Below are positions 2,047 to 38,678 of a stretch of 64,000 nucleotides of DNA, piece after piece. The notes under the pieces were generated by a model, which was not told the DNA's origin, did not search any database, and was given only the letters and a program-made list of their open reading frames with translations. The stretch is from Candidatus Limivicinus sp. (GTDB lineage Bacteria; Bacillota; Clostridia; Oscillospirales; Oscillospiraceae): NCBI GenBank assembly GCA_045117135.1, contig JBGUNA010000086.1:2638-66637 (forward strand). Direction: 5' to 3'. Numbering within the stretch: the first letter of the stretch is position 1; the number at the start of each line of letters is the position of its first letter. The translations under genes and the position numbers were made by a program.

Positions 2047-2064
2047 CAGAGAACAGTCTCCTTA

Positions 2065-4092: not shown

Positions 4093-4141
4093 ACTATCTC
4101 TCCTGAAATAACTAATCTCTCTATCTAAATTTCTATAATAC

Positions 4142-5806: not shown

Positions 5807-6971
5807 TTTTCAGAATATCCAGCGCCCTCTCCAAATCTTCTTTCTTCAAAACATATGCCATCCTGACTTCGTTTTTACCTCTTCCCGGGGTGGCGTAAAA
5901 CGGTTCTCCGCATGCAAACATTACTGTCTCGCCGTTGTCGTCAAACTCGTTCAGCAGCCAGAGCTGGAACTTGTCAGCATCATCTACCGGCAGAGCAGCC
6001 ATGATGTAGAATGCACCTTCCGGGCGGGCAAACTGAACGCCTGGAATCTGCTCCAGCTTTTTTACCATTGCATCGCGCCTTGCCTTGTATTCTTCCCTCA
6101 CGGCGGCGAAATAATCACTCCCGACGGAGTACAGCGCTGCAGCTGCCGCCTGGTCCGTTGAGGAAACTGCCAGCCTGCACTGACACCATTTCAGAGCTTC
6201 ACTCATGAATTCTTTGTTTTTGGAAATCAGGATGCCGATTCTTGCTCCGCAGGCGGAAAAACGTTTGGAAACTGAATCGATTACGATAATATTGTCTTCA
6301 TAACCGGAAGACTGCAATGCACTGACAAGCGGTTCTCCTCCGTAAACAAATTCACGGTAAACCTCATCACATAAAATGAAGAGGTCGTGCTCTTTCGCAA
6401 TGTCAAGCATCAGCTGGAGCTCTTCCCGGGAGAGGACAGTTCCTGTCGGATTTCCGGGGTTTGTAACCATAATAGCGCGAGTGTGTTCATTAATCAGCGG
6501 CTCAATATTTTCTCTGCTGGCAAACCGGTATCCGTCTTCCGGAGCAGAAGTCGGGATCGGACATACAGAGGCTCCTGCCAGAGTAACGGATGTATGATAA
6601 TTCGGATAAAAGGGTTCGGGGATTAAAATCTCATCACCATCGTCAAGTATAGAGGCAAGCGTCATCTGCAGTGCTTCACTACCGCCGGTTGTAATCAGAA
6701 TATCTTTTCTTTCCAGCGCAACACCGATTCCTACATAATAAGTTCGCACCGCATCCAGCAAAACAGGGACGCCCTGTGAAGGTGCATAGGAGATAACAGG
6801 GTCGGAATACTCTTTTAATGTGTCATAATACGCTTTCGGAGTATGGATGTCGGGTTGGCCGATGTTCAAATGATAGATTTTGATTCCGCGTGCTTCGGCG
6901 TTTGCTGCGAAACCGTTAAACTTCCGCATCGGGGAAAGCCCACATCGCTTCATTTTTGATGAAAATTTCAT
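5772..6971 (-). CDS. PLP-dependent class I/II aminotransferase (aspartate-aminotransferase-like)
   Basis: The ORF track gives 5772-7013. I trimmed it to the ATG at 6971, which is preceded by GGAGGTGG. Motifs: NIGQPD, TNPGNPTG, and the PLP-lysine region SVSKRFSACGARIG. Confidence 0.85.
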   Translation of the reverse strand: MKFSSKMKRCGLSPMRKFNGFAANAEARGIKIYHLNIGQPDIHTPKAYYDTLKEYSDPVISYAPSQGVPVLLDAVRTYYVGIGVALERKDILITTGGSEALQMTLASILDDGDEILIPEPFYPNYHTSVTLAGASVCPIPTSAPEDGYRFASRENIEPLINEHTRAIMVTNPGNPTGTVLSREELQLMLDIAKEHDLFILCDEVYREFVYGGEPLVSALQSSGYEDNIIVIDSVSKRFSACGARIGILISKNKEFMSEALKWCQCRLAVSSTDQAAAAALYSVGSDYFAAVREEYKARRDAMVKKLEQIPGVQFARPEGAFYIMAALPVDDADKFQLWLLNEFDDNGETVMFACGEPFYATPGRGKNEVRMAYVLKKEDLERALDILKIALEQYNSRNA

Positions 6972-7124
6972 TGCAGCCACCTCCTGAAAATAATCCAATC
7001 TATTATACCACAAGCTCCCATTTAATCAAGAAAAACATGTTAAAAAGGCGGCGGTTATCTCAAGTTGGAACTTGCCATATGACAGCTTTTTGAGTATACT
7101 TCACGTATAAATTGTGTTGGGAGA

Positions 7125-10100
7125 ATGGAAATGCTCAGAATGATCACCGGAAAGGCACGGTCGGGAAAAACGGCAGCGATCAACAGGGAAATTCAGCAGG
7201 CTGTGCAGCAAAAGCAGGGAAACCGAATTCTGCTTGTGCCGGAGCAGTATAGCCATGAGGCTGAGAGAGAACTGTGTGAGGTATGCGGGGATGCATTTTC
7301 TCTTTATGCAGAGGTTCTGAGTTTTACAGGCCTGGCCAGGAAGATAGCTTCTCTCCTGGGGGGAATTGCCGTAACTTATCTCGACGATGGCGGACGTACA
7401 CTTTGCATGGCGCAGGCTATGAAACTTATCGGGGGAAACCTCAGGATATTCCGAAATGCTGCTGAAAAACCGGAACTTCAGCGCATACTGATTGCTGCTG
7501 TCGACGGGATGAAAGCGTCAGGCATAACACCAATGGAGCTTGAAAAGGCTTCCCATCAGTGTGGCGGAGATCTGGCTGGAAAACTCTCTGACCTTGCTGT
7601 CGTCAGTGAAGCATATGAAACCGTGCTTGGTGATTCCCAGGTTGATCCGGGTGACAGGCTGGCGATTCTTGCTGCCAATATTGAAAACAGCTCTGTCATG
7701 ACTGATGCTGTTGTATATGTCGACGGCTTCATAGATTTTACAAAAACCGAGCTTGCTGTTCTCACTGCAATGCTGAAAAAAGGTGTGAGTCTGACCGTCT
7801 GCCTTACTATGGAAAAAGAAAACAGCGCAAATGAACTCTTTGCGCTGTCACAAAACAGCGCCGGAAAGCTTGAAGCGGCTGCAAAAGAACTTGGTGTGCC
7901 TATCGAGTATCGCCATTTTGAGGAAGACTGCACTCCGGACGATCCACTTCTTTTCTTCAGAGAACATGTCTTTACCTATACAGGAAAAACCTTTTCTTCC
8001 AATGGAGAGATTCAGCTTTTCCGGGCAGAAAATATTGCGGCCGAATGCGAGCTGGCAGCGTCTAAAGTGCTCGAGATAGTGAGAGAGTCGGGGTGCCGGT
8101 GGAGAGATATCGCCATAGCCGTCCGAGGGTTTGACGATTATGCTCCGCTGCTGGAGAGTACCTTTGAAGATTACGGCATTCCTTACTTTACGGCTCGAAA
8201 ATCCGATCTGAAAAGCAAACCGCTTCCCGCGCTGATTTCCTGCGCTTACGCCATCATTCAAGGGGGATGGAAAAGTGACGATGTGATCAGCTATATGGGC
8301 ACCGGGCTGACCGGACTTACAAGAGAGGAATGTGATCTTCTCTCTGCGTATCTTTTTCTTTGGGAGCCGGATGAGAGAGCGTGGAAACGAAAAGCTCCGT
8401 GGAGACAACCGCCGGACGGTTACGGGAAACAGCAGGACGAGAAATCCGATGAACGTCTTGCAAAAATCAATCTGCTTCGGGAAAAGCTTATCGCACCGCT
8501 GTTCCGCTTCGAGGAAGCTTCCAAAAAAGCACATACTGCTGCCGACCACGCAAAGGCGCTCACATCTCTTCTTGAAAAGCTGGATATTCCCGGCCAACTG
8601 GGTGAGAAGGCAGAACGGCTTTGGAATGAAGACAAAAAAAGCGATGCAGAGGAATACCGCCAGTTATGGGAAATTATCATTTCTGCTCTGGAACAGTCTG
8701 CGCAGGTGCTCGGCGATTCTCCAATGGAATCGGAAGAGTTTGCACGGCTTTTTCTGATTACCATCTCGCAATATGATATCGGAGTTATTCCGGCTTCAGT
8801 AGATGCCGTCGGTGCCGGAGACTTTGACCGCATGAGGCGCCGCAATATTAGAACCCTGATTATACTGGGTGCCAATGATGTACGTCTTCCTTCTGTGCCT
8901 GAAGAGACAGGCGTTTTCTCAGAGGAGGAGCTGAGACTTTTACACAGATCCGGGACTGAACTCGGCATGGACCCGGATCTTGAGCTGTGGAGAGAATATA
9001 CGCTCATTTACAACTGTATTTCTTTGCCTACTGACAGGCTGATTCTCTGTTATCCGTCACTGGATACAGACGGGAACGAAACACGCCCATCCTTTCTGAT
9101 CACCAGAGCGGAAAGGCTCTTTCAGTTGAAAACCATAAAAATGAATAAGGAACAGGCAGAACTGTCTGCCGAAAATCCGGCATTCCGTCTTGCTACAGCA
9201 GGGAAGAGCAAAAGTGCTAAAGCCGCAGAAGCCTTTTTTTTGCAGCATGATCCGGAAAGACTTCAGAGGATTCGGCAGGCGGCCGTCCAAATCCGAAACC
9301 CCATTTCACCGACAAGTGTTGAGACCCTATACGGAAAAAGACTAAAAATCAACGCATCCCGAGCAGAAAAGTTCTTCTCCTGCAAATATGCTTTCTTCTG
9401 CGAACATGGCCTGCAGATCAGACCGCACAGGAAAGCAGAGTTTTCTCCGGCAGAATACGGCACGTTTGTGCATTTCATCCTTCAGCAAACAATCGAGGCA
9501 GTCCTTTCGGGAGAAGGTTTCCGGCACACCGATGACAACCGCATTCAAGTTCTTGCGCGGAGCTTTATACATCAATATGAGCAGGATGCCCTTTCTGATT
9601 TCGCAGAAAAAAATGAGCGCTTTGTTTATCTCTTCAAGCGGGCGGAAGAAGATGCTGTCCGCGCTGTGCTGGATACAGCGAGAGAGCTCAGAAAAACTGA
9701 TTTTGTTCCACTCGCTTTTGAGCTGAACTTTGGTGACAGATCACTTTTCCCACCGATCCGGCTGAAAAACGATAAGGCTTCCGTTTTGCTTACCGGTGTT
9801 GCTGACCGGGTTGACGGCTGGGAAAATGATGGGATCGTGTACATCCGCATCTTTGACTACAAAACGGGAGAAAAAAAGTTCTCATTCTCGGATCTCTGGT
9901 ATGGGATGAGCCTGCAGCTCGTACTGTATCTGCTTGCGCTGGATAGCAATCCGGAAGCTGCCTCTGTGGCGCTCAAACTTCCGCAAGGTACAAAAGTATG
10001 TGCTGCCGGGGCTGTTTACCAGCAGGCACGGAGCAAGTATATCAGTCTGGACGGTGGGGCAGATATAGCAACCGCCCGGAAAGAACATGAAAAAAAGCTG

Positions 10101-22726: not shown

Positions 22727-22797
22727 CGAAATGAATCGAAATATAATTACAAATACAATGTATAAAAATCCGTGAAATTCTAAAGGGGGCTGTGCAA

Positions 22798-24513
22798 ATG
22801 AAAAAACTTTTAACGTTTCTCTTGATGCTCACATTGATGGCCAGTTTTGTTGTTCCTGGCCTGGCGGATTACGGGGATGGTCTTGACGATTATCTGTATT
22901 CTACCGGGAGCAGCGGTGTCACTCTGACAAAGTATTTCGGAGAGGGTGAGAGCACACTGGTACTCCCAACCGAAGTGGAGGGGTTACCTGTAACAAGGAT
23001 CGGTGAAAAATGCTTCGAAGATCATGATGAAATTGAAGCAGTCGTACTTCCGGAGACCCTGAAGGTAATCGGCTACCGCGCCTTCTACGGGTGCTCAAAA
23101 CTTTCTGATATGAACCTTCCGGATTCTCTGGAGCAGACAGGCGGATGGGCGCTTGCCCACACAGGATTTACCAGTTTCGTGTTCCCGGAAGGGTTTGACA
23201 CTCTTGGATATGGAACTTTTTACGGCAGCAGAAATCTTGAGACGGTTGTTCTGCCGGAAGGAGTGGAGTCCATCGGTGAAAACACTTTCAGAGGCTGCTC
23301 GAAACTACAGAGCGTAACAATCCCTTCGGATGAGATCAAAATCGATATCAAGGGATTTGAGGAAAACAGCAAGGTGACCATAGTCGGTGTTCCCGGCAGC
23401 TATGCTGAAAAATATGCGAAAGCAATCGGCATCGGATTTGAAGAATACCACAAGACAGAAGAAGTTGAAAAAACCGAAGAAATGTTGCTTTCTGGATGGA
23501 TCTGCCCGAACTGCAGAAAAGAAAACAACGGTAATTTCTGCCCGTTCTGTGGGACGAAAAAACCGCCTGAAGAAATCATTTGCACTGAATGTGGGGAAGT
23601 ATATCCTCCTGATACAGACTATGCCTTCTGCCCGAACTGCGGAAATCCGCTGTTACAGCCGTCAGATTCTCCTAAATCGGCTTCTTCATTATCCAAAACA
23701 TCAGAACCAAAAACTGTATCTGATCCTACACCGGAGCTGACTCAGAAACCTACTCCGGAAACATCTGATGATGGGGCAATTCCGGAAGAACTGGTTGGTG
23801 ACTGGCAGGGTGTTGGGAAACCGAAAAATGGAGGGCCTTCTATTGATCTGACCATCCATGTGGAAGAAGACGGAACCGGCAAATATATGTTTGATCAGGC
23901 AGGATACCATGAGAGCTATCCGTTCACGCTTTCCCGGGACGGTAAACGTTTCTCAGTAGATGTTCCGGCTACCAGCCAGCTGGGCAGTGTTGACGGCACA
24001 TGGGAAGTAGAAGATGATGTGCTGAAGCTGGACATTACCTCAACGTTTACCAGCGGCGGAAGCTATTCCTACAATGCGGAATGCAAAAGGATCGTTGCAG
24101 AAGACAAAGGGAGTTCTGCAGCTGAAGGAAACCAGGCAGGTTTTGTGGGAGAATATTCCTGGCTTTCTTATCATTTGACGGTGAATTCTAAAGAAATCGT
24201 GCCAGGGACTGAATTGGATAAATCTCCTTTCAGTACGATTAAAGACAAAATGTTTGCTAAGATCCGTCTGATGGGAAAAGATGAAGAAATCCTCACAACA
24301 GATCTGCAGGACGACAATAAGATGGGTCAGTTTGTGCTTACAGATAAAGAAGGAAAAGAACTTCCACTCTATTCTGTGAGTATGTGGGGGATTACCTTCG
24401 ATGCCGACCTGGGATTCAGCACGAAGGAAACACAGGAAGGCTTTGATCTCATTTTTCTTGTCGGCGACAACGATCGAATCGAAGATTTGACACTTACTGT
24501 AAAAGATCAGTAA
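22798..24513 (+). CDS. Secreted modular protein P1: signal peptide + BspA-type LRR (LRR_5-like) + two Cys4 zinc-ribbon knuckles + C-terminal beta-rich domains
   Basis: ATG at 22798 after AAAGGGGG. Signal peptide: MKKLLTFLLMLTLMASFVVPGLA. LRR_5-like repeats: LPETLKVIGYRAFYGCSKL, LPEGVESIGENTFRGCSKLQSV. Ribbon A (23497-23565): WICPNCRKENNGNFCPFCGTKKP. Ribbon B (23581-23652): CTECGEVYPPDTDYAFCPNCGNPL. Confidence 0.75.
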   Translation: MKKLLTFLLMLTLMASFVVPGLADYGDGLDDYLYSTGSSGVTLTKYFGEGESTLVLPTEVEGLPVTRIGEKCFEDHDEIEAVVLPETLKVIGYRAFYGCSKLSDMNLPDSLEQTGGWALAHTGFTSFVFPEGFDTLGYGTFYGSRNLETVVLPEGVESIGENTFRGCSKLQSVTIPSDEIKIDIKGFEENSKVTIVGVPGSYAEKYAKAIGIGFEEYHKTEEVEKTEEMLLSGWICPNCRKENNGNFCPFCGTKKPPEEIICTECGEVYPPDTDYAFCPNCGNPLLQPSDSPKSASSLSKTSEPKTVSDPTPELTQKPTPETSDDGAIPEELVGDWQGVGKPKNGGPSIDLTIHVEEDGTGKYMFDQAGYHESYPFTLSRDGKRFSVDVPATSQLGSVDGTWEVEDDVLKLDITSTFTSGGSYSYNAECKRIVAEDKGSSAAEGNQAGFVGEYSWLSYHLTVNSKEIVPGTELDKSPFSTIKDKMFAKIRLMGKDEEILTTDLQDDNKMGQFVLTDKEGKELPLYSVSMWGITFDADLGFSTKETQEGFDLIFLVGDNDRIEDLTLTVKDQ

Positions 24514-28834: not shown

Positions 28835-28949
28835 GAAATGAGCTAATAGTATTAATCTCATCTAGATCAAAGAAAATATGGAGATTTCCAATTTACATCA
28901 TAAAACTGAAAAAAGCTCTCAAAAGAGAAGAAAAAGAAGGGAAAATGCA

Positions 28950-30788
28950 ATGAAAAAACTAATAGCATTCCTTTTATATATAATGTTGTTGGCTGGGATG
29001 ACAATTAGCTTTGCTGATGGTGAGAGTTGGATTTGCACTGAATGCGGGAAGGAAAGCGACGGAAACTTCTGCCCATATTGTGGAGCTAAGAAACCGGAAA
29101 CAGAAATAACATGTACTTCCTGCGGGGAAGTATATGCCCTGGATCTGGGTTATGCTTTCTGCCCGAACTGCGGAGCTACCTTGAAGGAACACGAGGAGTC
29201 TGCTCCCGAGGGGGAAAAATATTCCTTTTCAGTTGGTTACTGCATCTGGAACCTGAAAAAAGACCGCTTGTTGGAATATGTGGATGAGGATGACATGACG
29301 GCAGAAACACTTCCGGATGGGGATGTTTACGGGCCGGTGCTGACAGTCACCAATCTCTCTGGGGAAACAGTCAGGCCGGAAATCACAGCCACAATTAATG
29401 GAGAAGAGATTACCTGGGATCGAACAGAGTTCGGCCCATCAGAGGAATGGTCATTTGTTATAACAGAGAATTCTCCGGCGGGGGAATATGATTACACGTT
29501 TTTCGTGGATGGGAAAGAAGCGGCTTCGGGGCATTATACTGTGAAGAGCGAAGGCCCGCTCGGTGAAGATGCACCGACGATTGAATCCATTATTATGATG
29601 GGCAGTAAAGTTATCGTTACGTGGAAGGAAGTTCCCGGAGCGGAAAATTATACGGTTTATCGGTCTGAGGATAATGAAATTTACAGCAAGATCGGCCTTA
29701 CCATCCCACGGACATCATATACCTGCAAAACCTGCGAAGAAGGGAAAACCTATTTCTTCAAAGTGAGCGCAAACGGTTACGATGGTAAAGAAGGGCCCGT
29801 GAGCAAGGCAAAAAGCATTGACATTCCGGTTGATGTGTTCTCCCAGGGGAAAACAGAGGAGCCAAAACCGACTGTAAAACCTACACCGGAGCCGACTGAG
29901 GCTCCTACACCAGAACCGACGCCCGAACCTACCCCTGAACCAACTCAAATGCCTGAAGATGTCCTGAAAGCCGGAGAGAACGGAACTATTCAACTGGAAA
30001 TGGGATCAGGAACGGTTTTCACTCTTACCCCGGTTGAAGCAAGTGCATTCTGGAAACAGAGCGATAAGGTCAGCGTACGGACACGAATCGGAGATACAAA
30101 CCTGAACAACGGAGCCACTGCGACATCCGGAAGCAGCCTTATGCTGAGCACTATGAAGAATACAAAACAGTATTCAATGCCCATGGCAGCTTTTTCCTGG
30201 AAGAGTGACGTTTCTGGCGATGAAGCTGCGGGAGCAGTCGGAAAAATCGGAAGATCAACTATTCTGTTGCTTGATGGGAAATCTTATACACCACGGGTAG
30301 CCTGGAGTACGGATGAGATGGGTTGCTTCATTTTCGATTGTCCGGAGCTGCCGGAACAAGTTCCGGTTTTCCAGATTCAGGATCAAAAACTTGTTATTTC
30401 ATATGAGTTACCTGAATTGCTGGCGAAGGAAGAACCTCCTGTGAATAATGAACCGATCACGCTTCATGTCAAGACGGCCAAATATACCTTTGATGCGACA
30501 GTTGTCGATGTTACAATTGAAGACGGTCAGCTGCATGTGAGCCTGGAAATCAAGAATAACGATAAATGGGCGTTTGAGTATAATCCTCCTTTGTGCTATG
30601 CATTGATAAGCGGGAAAAAGTACGAGGTGGATACATATAATGCAACGCAGCACATTGACACAAAAGGAATCACGCTTAGTTCGCTGACCTATAATATCCC
30701 TTATAAATCAGATACGCTTCCGGACCAGGTTCTGATGGATGTATCCGGAAATGGTGACTATCAGGTGATTTGGAATAACGCAAAGTGA
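28950..30788 (+). CDS. Secreted modular protein P6: signal peptide + zinc ribbons A and B + Ig/Fn3-like domains + Pro/Thr linker + C-terminal domain
   Basis: ATG at 28950 (the track ORF starts at 28878). Signal peptide: MKKLIAFLLYIMLLAGMTISFA. Ribbon A (29028-29096): DGES WICTECGKESDGNFCPYCGAKKP. Ribbon B (29112-29183): CTSCGEVYALDLGYAFCPNCGATL. Fn3-like segment: VTWKEVPGAENYTVYRSEDN. Linker: KPTVKPTPEPTEAPTPEPTPEPTPEPTQ. Confidence 0.75.
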   Translation: MKKLIAFLLYIMLLAGMTISFADGESWICTECGKESDGNFCPYCGAKKPETEITCTSCGEVYALDLGYAFCPNCGATLKEHEESAPEGEKYSFSVGYCIWNLKKDRLLEYVDEDDMTAETLPDGDVYGPVLTVTNLSGETVRPEITATINGEEITWDRTEFGPSEEWSFVITENSPAGEYDYTFFVDGKEAASGHYTVKSEGPLGEDAPTIESIIMMGSKVIVTWKEVPGAENYTVYRSEDNEIYSKIGLTIPRTSYTCKTCEEGKTYFFKVSANGYDGKEGPVSKAKSIDIPVDVFSQGKTEEPKPTVKPTPEPTEAPTPEPTPEPTPEPTQMPEDVLKAGENGTIQLEMGSGTVFTLTPVEASAFWKQSDKVSVRTRIGDTNLNNGATATSGSSLMLSTMKNTKQYSMPMAAFSWKSDVSGDEAAGAVGKIGRSTILLLDGKSYTPRVAWSTDEMGCFIFDCPELPEQVPVFQIQDQKLVISYELPELLAKEEPPVNNEPITLHVKTAKYTFDATVVDVTIEDGQLHVSLEIKNNDKWAFEYNPPLCYALISGKKYEVDTYNATQHIDTKGITLSSLTYNIPYKSDTLPDQVLMDVSGNGDYQVIWNNAK

Positions 30789-30921: not shown

Positions 30922-32220
30922 TCAGCTTTTTGCAAAAGAGCAGTCGTTGGCGATTTCTTCTTGGTTGTCGTGCCAGATTGCAATTTTGTTTGCGATGTAA
31001 AGATAACCGGAACCATTTTCGTAATAGGTGGTACGCGTTTCTGTTCCATCGGCATTGAAATGGATAGAAGTCTTGGTGCAGTCTTCGTATGTGAGAATTC
31101 CGGCCTGGGTGAAAGTGCCGCTGAAGTTCCATTCATCCGTTTCTTCGGCACCGTTCGGCCAATGCACAGTGACTTTTTTCAATTCATCGGTTCCTTTTAT
31201 CTCGATGACAGCTTTTCCGGCAGTTCTCTCAACATAGATACCTGCATAAGTGTCAGGCTCTTCAGCAACCTGCTGCTGCGGAGCGGAAGTAGCAACCGGG
31301 GCTGCTACCTTTACGGGAGCAGAGACTTTGCTGAGGAGGTAGATGCGCCCGCCTTTTGGAATCGAATCGAGCTTCAGATCAGGGTTGATACTTGCCAGCA
31401 GATTCTCAACGGTTGCAAAATTGATCCCGTATGCTTTGCAAAGCTTACCTGCCGTATCTCCGGTAGTGATATCGTGGGAATAGACCGCGTAGACAGCATT
31501 ATCAGCTTTGGCAGAAGGGAAGAGGTAAGCTTTTCCGGTGGAAAGAGACTTGAGATTTACGACATCATTGAGAGATTTTACAAGTGCATCAATTTCAAAG
31601 GAGTATGGGGCTCCCAGGGCTTCACAGACTGTCTCAACGGTTTCGCCGGGCTCTAATTTATGCTCGACTATGAAGTATTCCAGCCTATCGCCTTCAATTG
31701 GGGGCTCAACAGTTGTGCTAATCTGCAGGAGAGGGGCATCAAGAGGGATATAAATGATCTGACGGGCTTCTATGCTGTTAAGCTCATCATCACTTTCCCA
31801 TCCGTTTAATCTTTTAATGGTTTCTTTGTAGTAATTGTAGTTCAGATGCTGTGCTTTGCAGATTTTAAACATTGTGTCGCCCTTTTTAACTTTATACTCT
31901 ATAGCATTCGCAGGGCAATTCTGGTCATGAAGGGAAACAATGGCTAGTGCATCTTCATCAGATTTGGGAAGATAAATTGTCTGCCCGATTGCCAGGGTTT
32001 CAAGAGAAATCTCTCTCGAAAAACCGTTTAGAATAAGAATTGCCGTTTTGTCAGCACTGTAATCCAAACCGAGTTTTTTACATAGGGAAACAACGGAATC
32101 GCCTTTTTTTGCAGTAACCTGCTGGGCGTATGCGGAATAGTCCGTTTCGGCAAAAGCCTGAACAGAAATGCAAGTCAAAGCGATGCAGATCAATAAAACA
32201 ATGCTTATTACTCTTCTCAT
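30922..32220 (-). CDS. Secreted protein with four LysM repeats + C-terminal beta domain
   Basis: Signal peptide: MRRVISIVLLICIALTCISVQAFA. There are four LysM-like units (VTAKKGDSVVSLCKKLG.., YKVKKGDTMFKICKAQH.., HKLEPGETVETVCEALG.., HDITTGDTAGKLCKAYG..). Confidence 0.85.
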   Translation of the reverse strand: MRRVISIVLLICIALTCISVQAFAETDYSAYAQQVTAKKGDSVVSLCKKLGLDYSADKTAILILNGFSREISLETLAIGQTIYLPKSDEDALAIVSLHDQNCPANAIEYKVKKGDTMFKICKAQHLNYNYYKETIKRLNGWESDDELNSIEARQIIYIPLDAPLLQISTTVEPPIEGDRLEYFIVEHKLEPGETVETVCEALGAPYSFEIDALVKSLNDVVNLKSLSTGKAYLFPSAKADNAVYAVYSHDITTGDTAGKLCKAYGINFATVENLLASINPDLKLDSIPKGGRIYLLSKVSAPVKVAAPVATSAPQQQVAEEPDTYAGIYVERTAGKAVIEIKGTDELKKVTVHWPNGAEETDEWNFSGTFTQAGILTYEDCTKTSIHFNADGTETRTTYYENGSGYLYIANKIAIWHDNQEEIANDCSFAKS

Positions 32221-32258
32221 GATGGCTTCTCCTTTGGTTACAAAAGTTTACATAAAAT

Positions 32259-32287
32259 ATTATACTATAATCCTCGTTATTTGTCAA
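32259..32287 (-). promoter_or_regulatory. Consensus sigma-A promoter for the LysM gene
   Basis: The minus strand reads TTGACA (32287-32282), a 17-nt spacer, then TATAAT (32264-32259). It lies ~40 nt upstream of the ATG at 32220. Confidence 0.6.
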
Positions 32288-32330
32288 CTAAATCCGGCTG
32301 AAACAATTCAGGAAGCAAACACTTTTTTCG

Positions 32331-32359
32331 TTGACGCTGGTTAGGTCTTGTGATACCAT
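32331..32359 (+). promoter_or_regulatory. Candidate extended -10 promoter driving the structured RNA / downstream operon
   Basis: TTGACG (32331-32336), a 17-nt spacer ending in TGa, then TACCAT (32354-32359). The predicted TSS is near 32366. Confidence 0.5.
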
Positions 32360-32431
32360 AAAGTTGTAGCTAGTGACGCTTATTTCTTGTATGGTCGCCT
32401 TACGGCGATTTGATCAGTGTCACAATTCACA

Positions 32432-32570
32432 GGGCGGATAGCTAATCAGGCTTATTTCTGATTTACCAAACCGGAGATGGAGGTTCGATTCCTCCCGGCG
32501 CACAGCGCTGTAGTTCAATGGCAGAATGCCGGTCTTCAAAGTCTGATGATATCATCCGCCTTTTTGTTTT
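32432..32570 (+). ncRNA. Structured ncRNA: a circularly permuted tRNA-like module closed by a long stem and U-tract (Y RNA / YrlA-like design). The 5' end may extend to ~32366.
   Basis: Elements in order: ACCGG 32470-74; AGAT; T arm GGAGG-TTCGATT-CCTCC 32479-95; CGGCGC 32496-501; ACA loop; GCGCTG 32505-10; TA; D arm GTTC-AATGGCA-GAAT 32513-27; G; CCGGT 32529-33. The outer helix GGCGGAT 32433-39 / ATCCGCC 32554-60 is followed by TTTTTGTTTT. No ORF fits this interval. Confidence 0.55.
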
Positions 32571-32598
32571 ATAAGACGGGAAACAGAGAGGATTTAGA

Positions 32599-34674
32599 AT
32601 GAATTCCATGGAATATCCGTACCTTTCTCCAATCTATCAGGACTATCTGTTTGATAAGCATGTTCTGGTCGGGGATGAAAACCATCCGAAGGAACCTTCG
32701 GAAGCCTTCCCAACAGTATTCGCCCTCGCAAGGCTTTTTGGCATCCGAATAACCTCCGGGCAGAAACTTGCCCACAGAGAGCTGATTGAACTTGCATCAC
32801 AAAAGTTAGGCGAAGATGTACCAAAGCCGTTTTACCGCAGATTCCCGGAGAGCGTGAGGGAACTGACGCAATTCCAGCTGATTTTTGACCAGCTGCTGGA
32901 ATACTATGTTTCCTATGGAATGAATGATTTTTCAGGGGAAGGGCATTCAGTTTTTGAGAAAGACTTTGAACGCGCTGCCTTTCAGGAAGATGCGAGAATC
33001 CTTGATTTTAAAATCGTCTCCAAGGAAGAGGCAAAGAAGCTGATAGCAGAATCGGTCGATACTCTGATGCTTTCCACTCGTCCTCTGAGGCAGGATCAGA
33101 TAAATCTGGTGAAGGCTTACATACAGGAGGAAAATATCCCGGAATTTACCCATTGTGCCTGCAAGGATACCGCTATTAAACTACTCCTGGCAACGAAGGA
33201 TCTCTCTTGGCTGCGCTTTCTGCATCTATCGGATGGCATTGCCATAGTGGATGAAATGAATTATGAATGGAATGAAAGCACAGACCTGAAAAAACTGAAT
33301 CTGAAAAACCAGCAGCGTAAATTTATCTCTCAAATTCTGGACTGGTTCTTTGAAAACGGCACTCCCTCCATAAAAGCCTGTTATGAAAAAAAGGCTCTTT
33401 GGTGCAGCATTCTGCATCATACCCATTACCAGCCGAAAAACGAAGCGGCAGCACGATTCGTAAAGGGTATGCGGGGCAAGGAAAACCATTCCGCGTTATC
33501 GGCTTTTGAGAATGAAATGGGAAAGGGAGAAATAGAGAAGGCTGCTGCAGTGCTCTTACAGGAGAAAGGAAGCGGAACACTGCTCCGGAACCTGAACTAT
33601 CTGCTCAGCCGATGCCGAACAAGAGCGGAAGTGGAATCAGTGATATCCCGTATTCATACGGATAATGTTATTCTTCTGCTCCAACTTTATTTTGAATATG
33701 TGCTCTCCGCCCCGGCAGCGCGCAGGACTTTCCGATTTTCAAAGTATTCCATGCTCCATAAGCATACGGAGACGGATGAAGAGATGGCGCGAAGAAGAAC
33801 CGTTCTTCCGCGAATAATCCGGAATAGTGCGAAGGAAACGATTCTGAACACTCTGAAAGATTTGATTAAGGGGCGCCTTGGAACAGTTTACTTTGATCCT
33901 CAGCTCAACAGCCTTGCCATTCCGCTGCAGGAGGGAACATCCCTCGCTGGATTTGGGGCATTGCCGAAGGGATCCCGATTACCGCTGCCGGACGGAAAAA
34001 TCATCCGCGCTTTCACCTACTGGGAGAAAGTGAATGATATTGACCTGAGTGTGATCGGTATAAACAGGAACGGATCCAAAAGAGAGTTTTCCTGGCGTAC
34101 TATGGCATCGTCACAGAGTGATGCCATTCTTTTCTCAGGTGATGTCACACGAGGGTACAATGGTGGTTCGGAGTTTTTTGATATCAATATCGATCAGTTT
34201 TGCACGAAATATCCGGATGTCCGTTATCTGGTTTTCTGCGACAACGTTTTTTCCGGCAGTCCGTTTAAAGCATGTACCTGTACCGCAGGCTATATGCTGA
34301 GGGATCGCGTCGGATCCGGAGAAATCTTTGAGCCCAAAACGGTACAGACCTCTTATCGGGTAGACTGCGACAGTACCTTTGCACTGCTCTTTGCTTTTGA
34401 TTTGGAAACAAGTGAGTTCGTATGGCTGAATGTGGCACTGAAAGGTCAGGCAAGAATTGCAGGCACTGAGGAGATTCAGTTCGTGCTCCGCTATCTCGAA
34501 AGCACAAGGGCAATGTCGCTTCGTTCGCTGATTGAAATGATGGCACAGGAAATGACAGAAGATCCGGCAGAAGCGGATCTGATCATATCTGACAGCGAAT
34601 TGGATATTCCGACTGAAACTCCGGTCATACACAGCTATGATCTAGAGAAAATGATCGCTCTGATCAACAGATAG
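32599..34674 (+). CDS. 691-aa protein: N-terminal ~450-aa all-alpha-looking region of unknown family + C-terminal TerD-like domain
   Basis: RBS GAGAGGA. Residues ~455-620 (nt ~33961-34458) match the TerD pattern: IIRAFTYWEKVNDIDLSVIG..NG..FSW....DAILFSGDVTRGYNGGSEFFDINIDQ...VRYLVFCDNVFSG...FALLFAFDLETSEFVW. I recognise no family for the N-terminal part. Confidence 0.7.
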   Translation: MNSMEYPYLSPIYQDYLFDKHVLVGDENHPKEPSEAFPTVFALARLFGIRITSGQKLAHRELIELASQKLGEDVPKPFYRRFPESVRELTQFQLIFDQLLEYYVSYGMNDFSGEGHSVFEKDFERAAFQEDARILDFKIVSKEEAKKLIAESVDTLMLSTRPLRQDQINLVKAYIQEENIPEFTHCACKDTAIKLLLATKDLSWLRFLHLSDGIAIVDEMNYEWNESTDLKKLNLKNQQRKFISQILDWFFENGTPSIKACYEKKALWCSILHHTHYQPKNEAAARFVKGMRGKENHSALSAFENEMGKGEIEKAAAVLLQEKGSGTLLRNLNYLLSRCRTRAEVESVISRIHTDNVILLLQLYFEYVLSAPAARRTFRFSKYSMLHKHTETDEEMARRRTVLPRIIRNSAKETILNTLKDLIKGRLGTVYFDPQLNSLAIPLQEGTSLAGFGALPKGSRLPLPDGKIIRAFTYWEKVNDIDLSVIGINRNGSKREFSWRTMASSQSDAILFSGDVTRGYNGGSEFFDINIDQFCTKYPDVRYLVFCDNVFSGSPFKACTCTAGYMLRDRVGSGEIFEPKTVQTSYRVDCDSTFALLFAFDLETSEFVWLNVALKGQARIAGTEEIQFVLRYLESTRAMSLRSLIEMMAQEMTEDPAEADLIISDSELDIPTETPVIHSYDLEKMIALINR

Positions 34675-34740
34675 AAGTTACCATTTTTTATGTTTTTGTA
34701 ATAGACCTGTTGCTGGTTTCATAAAGAACAGGAGACTGGG

Positions 34741-35445
34741 ATGACGTATGCAATCAGTGATCTTCATGGAAGAGTTGATCTTTACAGGGAAATACTGGAA
34801 AAGATTTCTTTCTGTGCAGAAGATACTCTATACATTCTCGGAGATATCGGGGACCGGAATGAAGGCGGTATTCAGATTTTCAAGCAAGTTATGGACAAGC
34901 CGAACATCCATATGCTGATGGGAAATCATGAACAGATGATGCTTGATGCAATTCTGCATCCCAATGGGGTCAGCTTAAACGGGGATGAAACCAATGAACA
35001 GCTCTGGTTCCGAAACGGTGGCAGCATAACAAAAAAAGAGTACCTGGCCGAACCGGAAGGACTGCAGTATAAGATTCTGCAGTATATTGAAAGCCTGCCT
35101 CTGAATATCGAACTGAATGTCAACGGAACAGAATATCTCCTCGTACACGGAATGCCGACCTGTATGTTTGAAAAATACGGCAGAGAGTATGAAAATGTTG
35201 CAGAATTCGCTGTTTGGGAACGGATCGAAGGCTGGATGAAGGTTGAATTTCCAGCAGATGTAATGATCTGCGGTCATACTCCGACATGGTATTACCGGGA
35301 TGAAAACCCGATGAGGATTTGCAGTGTAAGAAAAAATGTGTATGACATTGACTGTGGATGCTCCACCGGAGAGGAATTCGGTGGCCGGCTTGCCTGCCTG
35401 AGGCTTGATGATATGAAAGCTTTCTATACAGGCAATACTCTATAG
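34741..35445 (+). CDS. PPP-family (calcineurin-like) metallophosphoesterase, PrpA/PrpE/ApaH/lambda-phosphatase-like
   Basis: 234 aa. Motifs in canonical order: ISDLHG, ILGDIGDRN, MGNHE, LVHG, ICGHTP. Confidence 0.85.
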   Translation: MTYAISDLHGRVDLYREILEKISFCAEDTLYILGDIGDRNEGGIQIFKQVMDKPNIHMLMGNHEQMMLDAILHPNGVSLNGDETNEQLWFRNGGSITKKEYLAEPEGLQYKILQYIESLPLNIELNVNGTEYLLVHGMPTCMFEKYGREYENVAEFAVWERIEGWMKVEFPADVMICGHTPTWYYRDENPMRICSVRKNVYDIDCGCSTGEEFGGRLACLRLDDMKAFYTGNTL

Positions 35446-35558
35446 TTAGAGTGCAAAAATAAGAGAGAGAATTTTCGAATATTTGCTACAGGCTTTTGCA
35501 GGAAATATATCAGCGCTGTCAGGTGGAAAAGAACTATTGAAGTTCCAAAATGATGATG

Positions 35559-35593
35559 GCGCTCTCCCATCCCTGATCGGAGGGCGCTGTTTT
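35559..35593 (+). terminator. Terminator-like hairpin closing the RNA/TerD/phosphoesterase unit (it sits just upstream of the lacZ start)
   Basis: 9-bp stem GCGCTCTCC (35559-35567) / GGAGGGCGC (35579-35587, one G:U) followed by TGTTTT. Confidence 0.55.
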
Positions 35594-35597
35594 ACGC

Positions 35598-38500
35598 ATG
35601 GTTTGGAGGACTATGAAAGAATTCAGCTACGAGAAAATTGTAAAAGATCCGTCTGTTTTTGAGGATAACCGCCTTCCGGCACATTCGGATCATATTGCTT
35701 ACCGTACAAGAGAGGAACTTATCGCAGGGGAGACGAGCCTGCGTATGAGCCTCAACGGGATCTGGCGGTTTCATTATGCCAGAAATATCCATGCAGCACC
35801 GGAAAGATTCTGGGAAGAAAACTTCGATGCATCCGGCTGGGACATGATCCGTGTGCCCGCTCATATCCAGATGGAGGGGTATGATGTTCCTGCCTATGTG
35901 AATACGCAGTATCCGTGGGATGGGACAGACGATTTACAGCCGGGAGGAATCCCGGAAGTCTTCAATCCGGTTGCAGACTATCTGCTAGACTTTACCCTGC
36001 CGGAGCGGTTTGAAAGGGAAGACATTAATATTTCCTTTGAGGGTGTGGAAAGCGGCTTTGCCCTTTGGATAAATGGAAGATATGTCGGCTACAGTGAAGA
36101 CAGTTTTGACCCGGCAGACTTTTGTCTCACAGATGTCCTTCACAAAGGAAAAAACCGGATAGCAGTGCGCGTCTTCAAGTGGACACCGGGAAGCTGGTTC
36201 GAAGATCAGGACTTTTACCGGTTTTCGGGAATCTTTCGCGATGTCTTCCTGTACTGTCTGCCGCATACGGCGATTACAGATCTGTCTGTTGTGCCGGAAC
36301 TTGCAGATGACTATTCCTCCGGAACGGTACGCATTACTGCCAAAGGCAAAGGGAGCGGGTCTATGCATGTTCAGCTGATGAAGGATGGACAGCTGCTGGC
36401 TGAGGGCAATGCATCGGTGGGAGAAGACGGTCCATCCGCAGCGATTTTTACAGTTGATGCACCTGCGCTCTGGAGTGCGGAAATCCCGGAACTCTATCAG
36501 CTTCTGGTTGAGGTAAAGGATGAGAACGATGAAATCACTGAGGTAATGGAGCAGCAGGTCGGTTTCCGCCGGTTTGAGCTGCGTGACGGGTTGATGATGC
36601 TCAATGGTAAGCGCATTGTTTTCAAGGGTGTCGATCGGCACGATTTCAGCTCGGTGACAGGCAGAGTGCCGAACCGGGAGGAATTGGTTCAGGATCTGGT
36701 GACAATGAAGCAGAACAACATCAATGCCATCCGAACCTCCCATTATCCCAATCAGTCAGCGCTTTATGAGCTTTGCGACCGGTATGGGCTGTATGTAATC
36801 GATGAGAACAATATGGAAACCCACGGCATGTGGGACGCCATGCTGAGAGGCCAGGGGGAACCGATCCCGAAAGATCGGGAAGAGTATCTCCCAATGCTGC
36901 TCGACAGAGTAAACTCTATCTATCAACGGGATAAAAACCACCCATGTATTCTGATCTGGTCCTGCGGGAATGAGTCATACGGCGGAAAAGTCATTTTTGA
37001 AATGAGCCAGCTTTTCCGAGAGCTTGATAATACCCGGCTCGTGCACTATGAAGGCATTCGTGCTGACAGAAGCTATCCTGAGACGAGTGATATGGAAAGC
37101 CAGATGTACACGCCGGTAACGGAAATTGAGGCGTTTCTAAAAGACCATCCGGAAAAACCCTTTATTCTGTGTGAATATACCCATGCCATGGGAAATTCCT
37201 GCGGGGCGATGCACAAATACACTGAATTGTCTGACCGTGAACCACGTTATCAGGGTGGGTTTATCTGGGATTATGTCGACCAATCCATCTACAAAAAGGA
37301 TCGCTACGGGAAATGGTTTCAGGCTTACGGCGGTGACCACGGGGAACGCCCGACTGACTATAATTTTAGTGGAAACGGAATCGTTTACGGCGGTGATCGA
37401 ACCCCGTCTCCGAAAATGCAGGAAGTGCGGTTCAATTATCAGAATATTTCCGTTGAATTCACCGAGACACGATTCACGGTTAAAAATAAAAATCTCTTTC
37501 TGAATACCGATGTATACCATGCTGCAGCAGTTCTGCAGAAAGACGGAGAAGAGTGGAAATGGGAAGACCTGGAGATTTCCGTGCCTCCGCTCTCAGAAAA
37601 GAGTTTCCCGCTTCCGGATTCTTTCCTCAACGGGATGGAGACTTTGGAAAAGGCTGCCGCATCTCTTGGGAAGCCTCTGCCGGAGTTTGCTGTAACGATT
37701 TCCTTTACACTGAAGAAAGACACACTCTGGGCAAAAGCAGGGCACGAAGTTGCCTTCGGCCAGAAGATTTATAAACGCGCCTTTGTTCCATACAACTGTG
37801 AAGAGGATCTGACGGTTGTACGCGGAAACTGGAATCTCGGTGTGCGTGGAAAGAACTTTTCTGCCTTGTTTTCTGCACTGCGTCCCGGTCTGACTTCTTA
37901 TGTATATAGTGGGAGAGAACTGATTGAAGCAGTGCCCATGCCAAACTTCTGGCGTGCTCCGATTGACAATGATCGCGGGAATCAGATGCAGCACCGCTAT
38001 GCACAGTGGAAAATCGCAAGCATGTATCAGACGGTGAACGGAGGCGAGAAACCGTTCATCTATCCGGATGTGGAGGAGAAAGAACACAGTATTTCTGTTT
38101 CTTACCGGTATTATATGCCGACAGTTCCCAAAAGCAGTTGCATGCTTTCCTATGAAGTGTTCGGAGACGGGACGATTAAAACCACGCTTTCCTATGAAGC
38201 AGTACCTGGCTTGGCAGATATGCCTGAATTCGGTGTCCTCTTTAAACTTAATGCTGATTTTGACCGCGTGAAGTGGTATGGCCTCGGGCCGGAAGAGACA
38301 TATGCCGACCGGCAAAAAGGTGCCAGACTGGGAATTTATGAAAAATCAGTTCAGGAGAATCTGGCAAAATATCTTGTGCCGCAGGAATGCGGGAATAAGT
38401 GCGGGGTACGATGGGCTGAGGTTACGGACCGTAAAGGCCGCGGCATGAAATTCTTCGGGGATGAGCTGTATGTGAGTGTCCTGCCCTATACACCGCATGA

Positions 38501-38678
38501 ACTGGAGAATGCGGAACACGCCTATGAACTGCCGGAGATTCACTATACGGTTGTGCGTGTTGCGCTGCAGCAAATGGGGATAGGCGGCGATGACAGCTGG
38601 GGTGCTAAAACACATCCGGAATATCTGCTGCCGGCCGAAAAAGATCTGACTTTCTCGTTCTGGTTCTGCGGAAAATAA
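35598..38678 (+). CDS. lacZ: Beta-galactosidase, glycoside hydrolase family 2 (LacZ type)
   Basis: 1026 aa. Acid/base region: IWSCGNESYGG. Nucleophile region: FILCEYTHAMGNS (compare E. coli ILCEYAHAMGNS). The C-terminal small-chain domain is present. The alternative start ATG 35613 (MKEFSY..) follows GGAGGA. Confidence 0.9.
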   Translation: MVWRTMKEFSYEKIVKDPSVFEDNRLPAHSDHIAYRTREELIAGETSLRMSLNGIWRFHYARNIHAAPERFWEENFDASGWDMIRVPAHIQMEGYDVPAYVNTQYPWDGTDDLQPGGIPEVFNPVADYLLDFTLPERFEREDINISFEGVESGFALWINGRYVGYSEDSFDPADFCLTDVLHKGKNRIAVRVFKWTPGSWFEDQDFYRFSGIFRDVFLYCLPHTAITDLSVVPELADDYSSGTVRITAKGKGSGSMHVQLMKDGQLLAEGNASVGEDGPSAAIFTVDAPALWSAEIPELYQLLVEVKDENDEITEVMEQQVGFRRFELRDGLMMLNGKRIVFKGVDRHDFSSVTGRVPNREELVQDLVTMKQNNINAIRTSHYPNQSALYELCDRYGLYVIDENNMETHGMWDAMLRGQGEPIPKDREEYLPMLLDRVNSIYQRDKNHPCILIWSCGNESYGGKVIFEMSQLFRELDNTRLVHYEGIRADRSYPETSDMESQMYTPVTEIEAFLKDHPEKPFILCEYTHAMGNSCGAMHKYTELSDREPRYQGGFIWDYVDQSIYKKDRYGKWFQAYGGDHGERPTDYNFSGNGIVYGGDRTPSPKMQEVRFNYQNISVEFTETRFTVKNKNLFLNTDVYHAAAVLQKDGEEWKWEDLEISVPPLSEKSFPLPDSFLNGMETLEKAAASLGKPLPEFAVTISFTLKKDTLWAKAGHEVAFGQKIYKRAFVPYNCEEDLTVVRGNWNLGVRGKNFSALFSALRPGLTSYVYSGRELIEAVPMPNFWRAPIDNDRGNQMQHRYAQWKIASMYQTVNGGEKPFIYPDVEEKEHSISVSYRYYMPTVPKSSCMLSYEVFGDGTIKTTLSYEAVPGLADMPEFGVLFKLNADFDRVKWYGLGPEETYADRQKGARLGIYEKSVQENLAKYLVPQECGNKCGVRWAEVTDRKGRGMKFFGDELYVSVLPYTPHELENAEHAYELPEIHYTVVRVALQQMGIGGDDSWGAKTHPEYLLPAEKDLTFSFWFCGK

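Follow-up and report, generated by a model that had tools for sequence, protein, structure and literature searches.

The bacterial Ro60 (Rsr) system places one to several small RNAs, YrlA and YrlB, beside a protein gene and on the same strand (PMC4201824; RF02553). YrlA mimics a tRNA in circularly permuted form: it has a T arm, then a closed acceptor-like hairpin, then a D arm, together with a covarying Levitt pair. Its companion YrlB carries no tRNA mimic. Y RNAs are modular, combining a conserved stem on the protein side with a variable body; Ro60 consists of an alpha-helical repeat followed by a globular domain, and the system occurs in both bacteria and large phages. Here we analyze a locus of comparable design in a 64,000-nucleotide (nt) stretch of DNA from Candidatus Limivicinus sp. 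(Oscillospiraceae; assembly GCA_045117135.1, contig JBGUNA010000086.1, positions 2,638 to 66,637 of the forward strand), hereafter the window. The locus lies on the plus strand and consists of a structured RNA region, a gene for a 691-amino-acid (aa) protein and a gene for a 234-aa metallophosphoesterase. It had been picked out from the sequence alone (the original prediction) as a candidate three-component module, possibly analogous but non-orthologous to the Ro60/Y RNA loci.

The locus resembles the Ro60 system in several respects. The RNAs lie next to the protein gene and on its strand; one is a permuted tRNA mimic with the arms in the YrlA order and a covarying Levitt pair, and the other is a short module without a mimic, comparable to YrlB. 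A conserved structure, which we call the handle, is combined with variable bodies, the pair of RNA and protein is found in bacteria and in large phages, and the protein is modeled as an alpha-helical repeat followed by a globular domain. Unlike Ro60, however, the 691-aa protein has no detectable TROVE or vWA domain and carries a weakly TerD-like beta-sandwich instead. The handle sequence, AGCUA...UUAYUUC/GAUAUC, takes the place of the GNCGAA motif of YrlA, and the handle RNAs reach only about half of the Rfam YrlA gathering score. Also unlike Ro60 loci, the RNAs are found upstream of the gene, abutting the ribosome-binding site, and there is no linkage to RtcB or RtcA. Our reading of the locus, to which we assign a probability of about 60%, is that it encodes a Ro60/Y-RNA-like ribonucleoprotein (RNP) pair with a non-orthologous protein, linked to tRNA biology.

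The RNA consists of two tandem modules

The original prediction had taken the RNA to be a single element. The covariance model R1 resolved it into two tandem modules, at 32363-32433 and 32435-32558, within a structured region spanning approximately 32363-32562 on the plus strand. Both modules share the handle, made up of S1, AGCUA, S2 and UUAYUUC and closed by AAU, S2', GAUAUC and S1'. Across loci, the 5' side of the handle reads S1, AGCUA, S2, (A/G)UUUACUUC, and the 3' side AAU, S2', GAUAUC, S1'. The handle motif AGCTAN{5,7}YTTAYTTY occurred twice in the 64-kb window (at 32368 and 32440), compared to 0.02 expected occurrences, and both R1 and the motif scan confined the RNA to this locus within the window.

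Module 1 is a handle-only module with no tRNA-like body. Searched over 5.5 kb without filters, R1 scored it at 24.4 bits (E = 2e-4). Its elements follow in the order S1, AGCUA (32368-32372), S2 (GUGACGC), UUAUUUC, an inner hairpin, S2' and S1'. Module 2 combines the handle with a permuted tRNA mimic of the YrlA type and scored 100 bits with R1, a value that is not independent, since the training alignment includes the window module; independent support comes from about 100 other R1 matches in other loci. Starting from the outside, module 2 has S1 (32435-39 paired with 32554-58, extendable to 32432 with 32561), AGCUA (32440-44) opposite GAUAUC (32548-53), S2 (32445-52 with 32540-47) and UAUUUC (32453-58). 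These enclose an anticodon-stem analogue (32471-74 with 32529-32), a variable loop (32475-78), a T arm (32479-95), a closed acceptor-like hairpin (32496-32510), U8 and A9 (32511-12) and a D arm (32513-27). The Levitt pair in this module is A15:U48, and its minimum free energy is -49.3 kcal/mol (z = -3.2).

ARAGORN called no tRNA anywhere in the window, and a canonical tRNA was rejected for the window RNA on this basis. Likewise, Rfam (Rfam 15) gave no match in the window at gathering thresholds. A permissive Rfam scan of the intergenic region yielded a sole lead, YrlA (RF02553), at 35.5 bits against a gathering threshold of 69. The alignment covered the full model, positions 1-114, with the T, AS and D arms in the YrlA order.

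Covariation identifies the RNA as a tRNA mimic

To define the structure, we used an alignment (A3) of 31 homologous tRNA-like modules, including the window copy, with a hand-drawn structure; this alignment was also the source of R1. In many copies, the handle encloses an anticodon-stem analogue, a variable loop of 4-5 nt, the T arm, a closed acceptor-like hairpin of 6-7 bp, U8/A9 and the D arm, in that order. Standard pairs made up 98.6% of the paired positions in A3, compared to 78% after column shuffles and 34-48% when the partners were slid relative to each other, and compensatory changes on both sides were seen in 21 of the 28 pairs. No selection for pairing was made in S2, in the acceptor-like hairpin or in most of the T and D stems. 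The Levitt pair 15:48 was A:U in 13 modules and G:C in 18, without exception, and U8:A14 was kept in all 31. The GNCGAAN0-1G motif to which Ro60 binds, placed by Chen et al. (2014) on the 5' strand of the closing stem, was not conserved at that position in the 31-module alignment, where the invariant 5' element is AGCUA followed by UUAYUUC.

When scored against the Rfam YrlA model, the modules of relatives gave 33-43 bits, with alignments that spanned the full model; neither the window nor the relatives reached the threshold of 69 bits. Both A3 and the YrlA alignment thus contain a permuted tRNA domain of the YrlA type with a covarying Levitt pair. By this comparison of sequences, the RNA genuinely mimics a tRNA, as the bacterial Y RNA YrlA does. 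The tRNA mimicry claimed in the original prediction is therefore borne out by the YrlA-order alignment, the covariation of the helices and the 15:48 covariation in 31 of 31 modules, and the data show that the RNAs are real, structured and tRNA-shaped. Chen et al. called YrlA a tRNA mimic in 2014 on the same kind of evidence (PMC4201824).

The bodies held in the same handle fall into several classes: short, T-arm only, YrlA-like permuted and unpermuted tRNA-like. The unpermuted bodies, with D, anticodon and T arms, were found in three loci (L numbers designate the loci compared): L040 at 5063-5134, 5460-5530 and 5841-5903, L025 at approximately 2795-2888, and L052 at 600-728. In these modules the handle substitutes for the acceptor stem rather than for the anticodon loop. 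They scored 38-46 bits on the Rfam tRNA model (gathering 29), and the ARAGORN calls, which had aberrant anticodon loops, were either "tRNA-???" with an anticodon of 2 nt or tRNA-Ile(aat). Because such varied tRNA-like bodies, including unpermuted ones, occupy the same handle, the handle is a general adaptor for presenting different tRNA-like bodies.

The RNA is coupled to the 691-aa protein family

Homologues of the 691-aa protein that are 44-51% identical to it were collected from 80 species-representative loci, the best 80 of 231 GTDB matches. In 42 of the 80 loci, the 500 nt upstream contained a T-loop motif on the strand of the gene, and the opposite strand never had one; ARAGORN called almost none of these elements tRNAs. 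At E<=0.01, R1 found 134 matches in the window and 83 loci (approximately 954 kb, both strands searched), all of them on the strand of the protein gene. The 80 species loci accounted for 131 matches, distributed over 70 loci, and 126 of the matches were no more than 1.6 kb upstream of the gene. Single modules were found in 27 loci, two modules in 32, three in 8, four in one and seven in one. At least one tRNA-like module was present in 40 loci, and 29 had short modules only, which suggests that the handle, as judged from sequence, is the common denominator of the modules. The last module usually ends at the Shine–Dalgarno sequence or precedes a U-tract, and a U-tract after the last module is common among the loci without being universal. 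The combination of a short and a long module, as in the window, was present in all of the close relatives examined (L086, L088, L089 and L090).

Homologues that were 35-46% identical were also encoded by 16 phage contigs of 18-233 kb in IMG/VR, and in 13 of these R1 matched directly upstream of the gene, on the same strand. By comparison, R1 gave no match at E<=0.001 on 715 kb of unrelated phage DNA (80 IMG/VR loci). This control DNA consists of loci returned by an IMG/VR scan for CAGCTAN{5,7}TTTACTTC, which produced at least 120 single, apparently chance matches and is uninformative on the occurrence of the RNA without the protein.

In Lactobacillus phage LpeD (L087, MF787246), two weak tandem R1 matches at 3369-3526 (E = 0.13 and 0.29) fell below significance. 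Each holds GCUUACUUC between complementary arms, and they lie directly upstream of the homologue orf166, annotated as a "cytoplasmic protein". These sub-significant matches suggest that the association between RNA and protein reaches very distant phage homologues.

Clustering of the ORFs (open reading frames) in the 80 loci revealed no conserved protein-coding neighbour: the top family was present in 9 of the 80, at varying positions. The conserved unit therefore consists of the RNA or RNAs and the 691-aa-type protein. As with YrlA, the RNA and its partner gene share a strand and lie no more than a few kb apart, but the partner belongs to another protein family. The RNA and the 691-aa family are evolutionarily and genetically coupled across bacteria and phages, and the pair is found again in large phages and in some 70 bacterial species of gut and rumen. 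Cultivable carriers include Lachnospiraceae bacterium C6A11 and AC2029, Eubacterium ruminantium FB3002 and E. uniforme ATCC 35992 (loci L003, L017, L004 and L072). Of the co-occurrence that the original prediction expected for all three components, the RNA–protein pair accordingly stood (70 of 80 species loci and 13 of 16 phage loci), whereas the trio as a whole did not.

In one pair of relatives (L081/L082), the gene caller had placed a spurious 43-aa ORF on the minus strand over the tRNA-like RNA, at 5822-5953. Handle RNAs are probably mis-annotated or masked in public genomes.

The 691-aa protein has a helical repeat and a weakly TerD-like domain

An AlphaFold2 model of the 691-aa protein (pLDDT 79, pTM 0.74) has an alpha-helical repeat, or solenoid, in residues 1-440, a beta-sandwich in residues 460-612 and a small alpha/beta domain in residues 627-690. 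The protein had no match in Pfam at the gathering level, and HMMER searches with the protein and the family profile against all PDB sequences, TerD chains included, returned nothing at E<=10. More than 1000 close homologues were found, mostly of 680 aa, with named sources among Oscillospiraceae, Lachnospiraceae, Eubacterium and Clostridia, and a profile search retrieved 2500 clusters at 50% identity with E<=1e-3, of which 774 had E<=1e-30. In the phage collection, tblastn returned partially matching relatives from 11 records; large phages make up most of these, and two pairs of records each duplicate a single phage. Full-length structural homologues in phages were identified by Foldseek in BFVD, the best being a "tellurium resistant like" protein from an uncultured siphovirus (E = 8e-39, TM 0.72). 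Other BFVD matches came from Campylobacter virus IBB35 and Lactobacillus phage LpeD.

The relation to Ro60 was examined at several levels. When the full-length model was compared to the PDB by Foldseek, the top match was human Ro60 (9nen), with a probability of 0.92, E = 0.017 and TM 0.23/0.30 over 416 aligned columns. A separate model of residues 1-440 (pLDDT 80) matched generic solenoids only, none of them significantly, and Ro60 was outside the top 50. The C-terminal domain of the model is a beta-sandwich and not a vWA domain, the part that closes the ring of HEAT repeats in Ro60. None of 35 family members matched Pfam TROVE (PF05731), even at E<=10. Finally, hhalign comparison of the family profiles A1 and A6 with TROVE alignments (3 and 20 sequences, built from PDB-verified Ro60/Rsr and TROVE matches) gave probabilities of 0.2-0.4% and E = 0.15-0.36. 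TROVE/Ro60 membership was rejected on these three grounds (no Pfam TROVE match, a negative hhalign result and a Foldseek lead that was not reproduced with the N-terminal domain), and the 691-aa protein is not a detectable member of this family, although it may still be distantly related to it. The absence of detectable TROVE orthology agrees with the original description of the locus as analogous but non-orthologous to Ro60/Y RNA.

We also noted a near-invariant segment, GKGSxAxLRNLNYxxSRC (window 33574-33597, residues 326-333), which was the only part of the protein that hhalign paired with TROVE (LTxLLRNLG). The pairing fell short of statistical significance, but two of three profile pairs produced it, and it is consistent with Ro60 being the top PDB fold match.

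The beta-sandwich carries the motifs DIDLS and SGDxTxGxxGGSEFFDI, which resemble motifs in TerD. The best matches to Pfam TerD (PF02342) were in two members, at E = 0.096-0.097, below the gathering score, and hhalign against four PDB-verified TerD sequences gave E = 0.035 and a probability of 1.5%. Despite the weak score, hhalign aligned DIDLS with DLDAS and SGDxTxG..GGSEYFDI with TGDNRTGEGDGDDE. These correspond to the calcium-site motifs DxDLDAS and GDNxTGEGxGDDE of TerD, and some database entries label family members "TerD family protein". In contrast to the Ter system, no other ter genes were found nearby, and the acidic calcium-binding residues are largely replaced. The TerD label given in the original prediction thus held as far as the alignment of the calcium-site motifs, but not at the level of Pfam gathering or of hhalign significance; the assignment of the beta-sandwich as TerD-like is plausible but weak. 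No RNA partner of TerD proteins is known to us, nor did the open-access papers and preprints searched yield one.

The protein also matched the NCBIfam family NF041916 (MXAN_6230/SCO0854 RING-domain), which aligned residues 298-619 to positions 388-712 of an 842-position profile, with a score of 105 bits (E = 3e-30) against a cutoff of 600. The 691-aa protein has no RING region, unlike members of this family. Membership of NF041916 was rejected, as the score was far below the cutoff and the RING was missing, and the two are homologous in part.

The pair recurs in tRNA gene arrays

In L043, the RNA–protein pair was found inside an array of 28 tRNA genes (3067-8952); the same block holds a distant Metallophos gene and a PF04308 RNaseH-like gene. 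In L046 the pair lies beside six tRNAs (2693-3177). A tRNA gene also follows the protein gene in several further bacterial loci, at a distance of about 100 nt in L010, L035 and L036. Among the phages, contigs L091/L092 have 11-14 tRNA genes around the pair within approximately 10 kb (787-9755), and the loci L093, L094, L102, L103 and L104 also hold tRNA genes. Because the pair recurs inside both bacterial and phage tRNA arrays, we infer a role in the surveillance, protection or turnover of tRNA or structured RNA, possibly during phage–host conflict.

The phosphoesterase is a lineage-specific accessory

The 234-aa protein is a metallophosphoesterase of the binuclear PPP type, matching Pfam Metallophos (PF00149) at 48.2 bits against a cutoff of 21.5. 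Its translation contains SDLHG, GDIGDRN and GNHE, corresponding to the DxHG, GDxxDR and GNHE motifs of lambda NinI, PPP phosphatases and the Pnkp phosphatase module. The best family match was PHROG 246, the lambda NinI-like Ser/Thr phosphatase (E = 1.5e-42). Another PHROG match, a weak one (E = 3.8e-5), was to a phage "RNA ligase" family that contains such a module, and it fell on that phosphatase module. NCBIfam scores were 44.5 for ApaH, with a cutoff of 176, and 36.7-42.5 for PrpA/B, with cutoffs of 326-332. Unlike Pnkp, the protein is a stand-alone phosphatase, and there is no kinase or ligase gene within the transcription unit. Of the classes considered, ApaH, PrpA/PrpB and the Pnkp type were rejected, since the cutoffs were not reached and there was neither fusion to, nor proximity of, a kinase or ligase.

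We then compared the occurrence of this gene with that of the RNA–protein pair. The phosphoesterase lies directly downstream in a relative with 97% identity (L085/L086), which has the same LysM and lacZ flanks as the window, in an 86% relative (L090), where the flanks are LysM and an ABC transporter and the downstream genes are different, and in a 78% relative (L081-L084), where the gap is 8 nt and the context is one of TIR-domain and kinase-WD40 proteins. It is not found directly downstream in the 75% and 67% relatives (L088/L089). In the 80 species loci it is never adjacent, although four hold a Metallophos gene of 28-32% identity elsewhere in the locus, and it is absent from all 16 phage loci. 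The three-component unit that was originally proposed is therefore not syntenic beyond the 97%, 86% and 78% relatives, and the phosphoesterase was rejected as an obligate partner because it is not adjacent to the pair in the 75% and 67% relatives or in the 80 species loci and is absent from the phage loci. Because its adjacency is limited to these three relatives, the phosphoesterase is a lineage-specific accessory and not a defining component; inside the lineage it moves with the pair, and it is probably co-transcribed with the RNA–protein module.

The setting of the trio in L081-L084 (1-13283) is of interest in itself. There, it lies between two TIR-domain proteins (778 and 545 aa) and a 1277-aa kinase-WD40 protein, a context that is defence-island-like, in contrast to the housekeeping context of the window.

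Organization of the transcription unit and its neighbourhood

On the plus strand, the order is promoter, RNA, 691-aa gene, 234-aa metallophosphoesterase gene and hairpin terminator. A consensus scan found a candidate sigma-70-like promoter at 32331-32359, TTGACG-17-TACCAT with an extended -10 TG (9/12), which, from the consensus match, would be the promoter of the RNA. The predicted transcription start at about 32366 coincides with the beginning of module 1. Downstream, by sequence and fold, the extended closing stem finishes and the U-tract follows within 32559-32570 (CCUUUUUGUUUU). The U-tract itself (32561-32570) is followed by 28 nt leading to the ATG at 32599. S1 and the U-tract resemble an intrinsic terminator and may function as one, in which case expression of the 691-aa gene would need read-through past the end of the RNA.

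The 691-aa ORF (32599-34674) was identified from the ORF list and its ribosome-binding site, and is followed after 66 nt by the 234-aa ORF (34741-35445). A GC-rich hairpin at 35555-35591 (to 35593 with its tail), followed by UGUUUU, has a folding energy of -21.6 kcal/mol (z = -3.6). It was not called by a rule-based terminator scan, which requires a loop of 3-8 nt, because a simple reading with a 9-bp stem has an 11-nt loop. The hairpin is likely the terminator that closes the transcription unit before lacZ, a GH2 beta-galactosidase gene at 35598-38678 directly after it. On the other side, a LysM gene (30922-32220; Pfam LysM, E = 2.6e-13) runs divergently on the minus strand and is served by a separate promoter, TTGACA-17-TATAAT, at 32287-32259 on that strand, a perfect 12/12 match to the consensus. 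The physical layout in the original prediction, with a divergent LysM gene under its own promoter, three co-directional elements separated by gaps of 28 and 66 nt, and a closing hairpin before lacZ, was thus confirmed throughout.

The neighbourhood in the window is made up of ordinary chromosomal genes, encoding a BspA-type leucine-rich repeat (LRR) protein, DUF6273, IMPACT/UPF0029, an HflX-type GTPase, a thioredoxin-reductase-like protein, DnaB_2 and MFS; it is neither a prophage nor a defence island. Mechanically called ORFs lie beside or partly over the RNA region, at 32168-32344, 32569-32775 and 32594-32824. Upstream of the LysM gene, at 22792-24513 and 28878-30788, two large proteins both have double-zinc-ribbon segments; BspA-type LRRs accompany them in one protein, and an Fn3 domain with a PT-repeat linker in the other. 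The two may be paralogues that are secreted or exposed at the surface, and they seem to have no relation to the RNA–protein pair.

Discussion

How might such a pair operate? We propose that a single promoter would drive both tandem small RNAs. Each has a handle formed by the covarying stems S1 and S2, with an invariant internal loop in which AGCUA is opposite GAUAUC, followed by UUAYUUC, and the second RNA inserts a tRNA-shaped body into this handle, in a permuted topology as in YrlA. The 691-aa solenoid/TerD-like protein would probably bind the invariant handle. The tRNA-like body would then be presented to tRNA-recognising factors or to tRNA substrates and serve as a decoy, a tether or a gate, in parallel with the tethering and gating of Ro60 by Y RNA. 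Because the last module ends at the ribosome-binding site in most relatives or, as here, in a U-tract 28 nt before the start codon, protein bound to its own upstream RNA, either the module proximal to the ribosome-binding site or the terminator-forming one, would probably also feed back on its own expression. As a whole, the system would act on tRNA or other structured RNA. The NinI-like enzyme joined the operon only in this Oscillospiraceae-type lineage, where its substrate could be a phosphoprotein or RNA ends with a 3' or 2',3'-cyclic phosphate.

A more far-reaching version of this proposal can be offered only tentatively. The handle RNAs and the solenoid/TerD-like protein, which is unrelated to Ro60, might constitute a new class of RNP, convergent with Ro60/Y RNA and acting on tRNAs; we hold this possible, at somewhat less than even odds. 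Such convergence would explain the presence of the pair inside bacterial and phage tRNA arrays. In the same guarded sense, the bodies might be interchangeable, with the handle carrying no body, a T arm, a permuted mimic or an unpermuted mimic with an anticodon arm. It is similarly conceivable, if short of probable, that the class is widespread in gut and rumen Clostridia and large phages, serving in the surveillance, protection or sequestration of tRNA.

Several points weigh against the interpretation as a Ro60/Y-RNA-like RNP pair. We infer the interaction between protein and RNA from synteny alone, the 691-aa protein has no recognised RNA-binding domain, and its sole PDB fold match to Ro60 is weak and vanishes when the N-terminal domain is used by itself. 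Our 80 species loci are the best-matching part of a larger set, and the R1 E-values are rough. Ten of the 80 loci had no R1 match at E<=0.01, and upstream sequence was missing in only two or three of them. In L023, the only match (8124-8252, tRNA-like, 105.8 bits) is about 90 nt downstream of the gene. Lastly, the 3' end of S1 was set using complementarity, so that the pairing statistics for S1 are biased.

Other explanations for the locus have to be considered. The protein could be a very divergent but true Ro60/TROVE homologue in which the vWA domain was replaced by a TerD-like domain, and the RNAs bona fide Y RNAs. Human Ro60 (9nen) is, after all, the top full-length PDB match in Foldseek, the only local hhalign alignment repeatedly pairs GKGSxAxLRNLNY with LTxLLRNLG, and the RNA has the YrlA topology. 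We nevertheless regard this as unlikely, considering hhalign probabilities of 0.2-0.4% (E = 0.15-0.36), no TROVE match at E<=10 among 35 members, a TM-score to Ro60 of 0.23-0.30, an N-terminal model without Ro60 in its top 50, the lack of a conserved GNCGAA and YrlA scores of 33-43 bits against a gathering threshold of 69. Alternatively, the modules could be purely cis-acting leaders, 5' untranslated elements that regulate the 691-aa gene either through autoregulation, as its operator, or by sensing a tRNA-binding factor. They would then decide whether transcription stops at the U-tract or whether the ribosome-binding site is accessible, and there would be no RNP in trans. Such a leader would account for modules that are nearly always upstream and on the same strand, that typically end at the Shine–Dalgarno sequence or precede a U-tract, and that in the window leave, in a 28-nt gap, no room for a separate promoter between RNA and ORF. 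It would be hard put to account for up to seven tandem modules over 1.5 kb (L040) or the downstream module in L023. The diversity of bodies (short, T-arm only, permuted and unpermuted) resembles a family of separate RNAs, the embedding in tRNA arrays suggests release by tRNA-processing enzymes, and full tertiary covariation of a tRNA exceeds what an operator needs. We find an exclusively cis-acting leader quite improbable, and cis and trans roles are not mutually exclusive.

That the three components form an obligate trio, in which the phosphoesterase would process a nucleotide signal or the ends of RNA, is very unlikely. Within the close clade the trio is kept in the face of differing flanks (window/L085, L090 and L081-84), the PHROG match to the "RNA ligase"-family phosphatase module (E = 3.8e-5) hints at RNA, and a distant Metallophos gene heads the tRNA array that contains the pair in L043. 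Set against these are the 75% and 67% relatives, which have no phosphoesterase beside the pair, adjacency in 0 of 80 loci, with only four holding a 28-32% identical Metallophos gene elsewhere in the locus, absence from 16 of 16 phage loci, and a best family match to a lambda NinI-like Ser/Thr phosphatase (E = 1.5e-42). Another kind of module that might come to mind is a type III toxin–antitoxin or abortive-infection-like system in which the RNA repeats neutralise a toxic protein. ToxIN-type loci have tandem structured RNAs, a terminator-like element and a protein gene on one strand, and the succession of promoter, tandem structured RNAs, U-tract and protein gene resembles this layout; the genomic contexts are variable, with one rich in TIR domains, and the pair is present in phages. 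Unlike the repeats of ToxIN/CptIN, however, the RNA units are heterogeneous rather than near-identical, often single (27 loci have one module) and tRNA-like. The protein is unrelated to the toxins and about four times their size, with a length of 680 aa and no nuclease-like match. The window is also an ordinary chromosomal one, with HflX, TrxB-like, DnaB_2 and MFS genes. PADLOC had no match for either protein and, together with the heterogeneity of the RNA modules, this led us to reject a known anti-phage or type III toxin–antitoxin class; we consider this explanation extremely improbable.

Returning to the RNP pair, we found no earlier description of the pairing between this RNA and protein in open-access papers and bioRxiv preprints, and the handle RNA is a class of structured RNA that has no Rfam 15 family at curated thresholds. 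To our knowledge, tRNA-mimicking Y RNAs have so far been known only as partners of Ro60. Here, very strong comparative evidence links an RNA of the Y-RNA design to another, uncharacterised protein superfamily, which comprises about 2500 clusters at 50% identity and was matched in at least 231 GTDB species. This suggests that evolution has arrived more than once at the combination of a protein with a tRNA-like tether RNA. The finding adds a new class of structured RNA with several sub-types, and it has a practical side, as gene callers now put spurious ORFs over handle RNAs. The placement in tRNA arrays ties the pair to tRNA-targeted phage–host conflict, a subject of active research, and the proposed RNP provides a concrete and testable hypothesis for a large family of "hypothetical proteins" of the human and ruminant gut microbiome.

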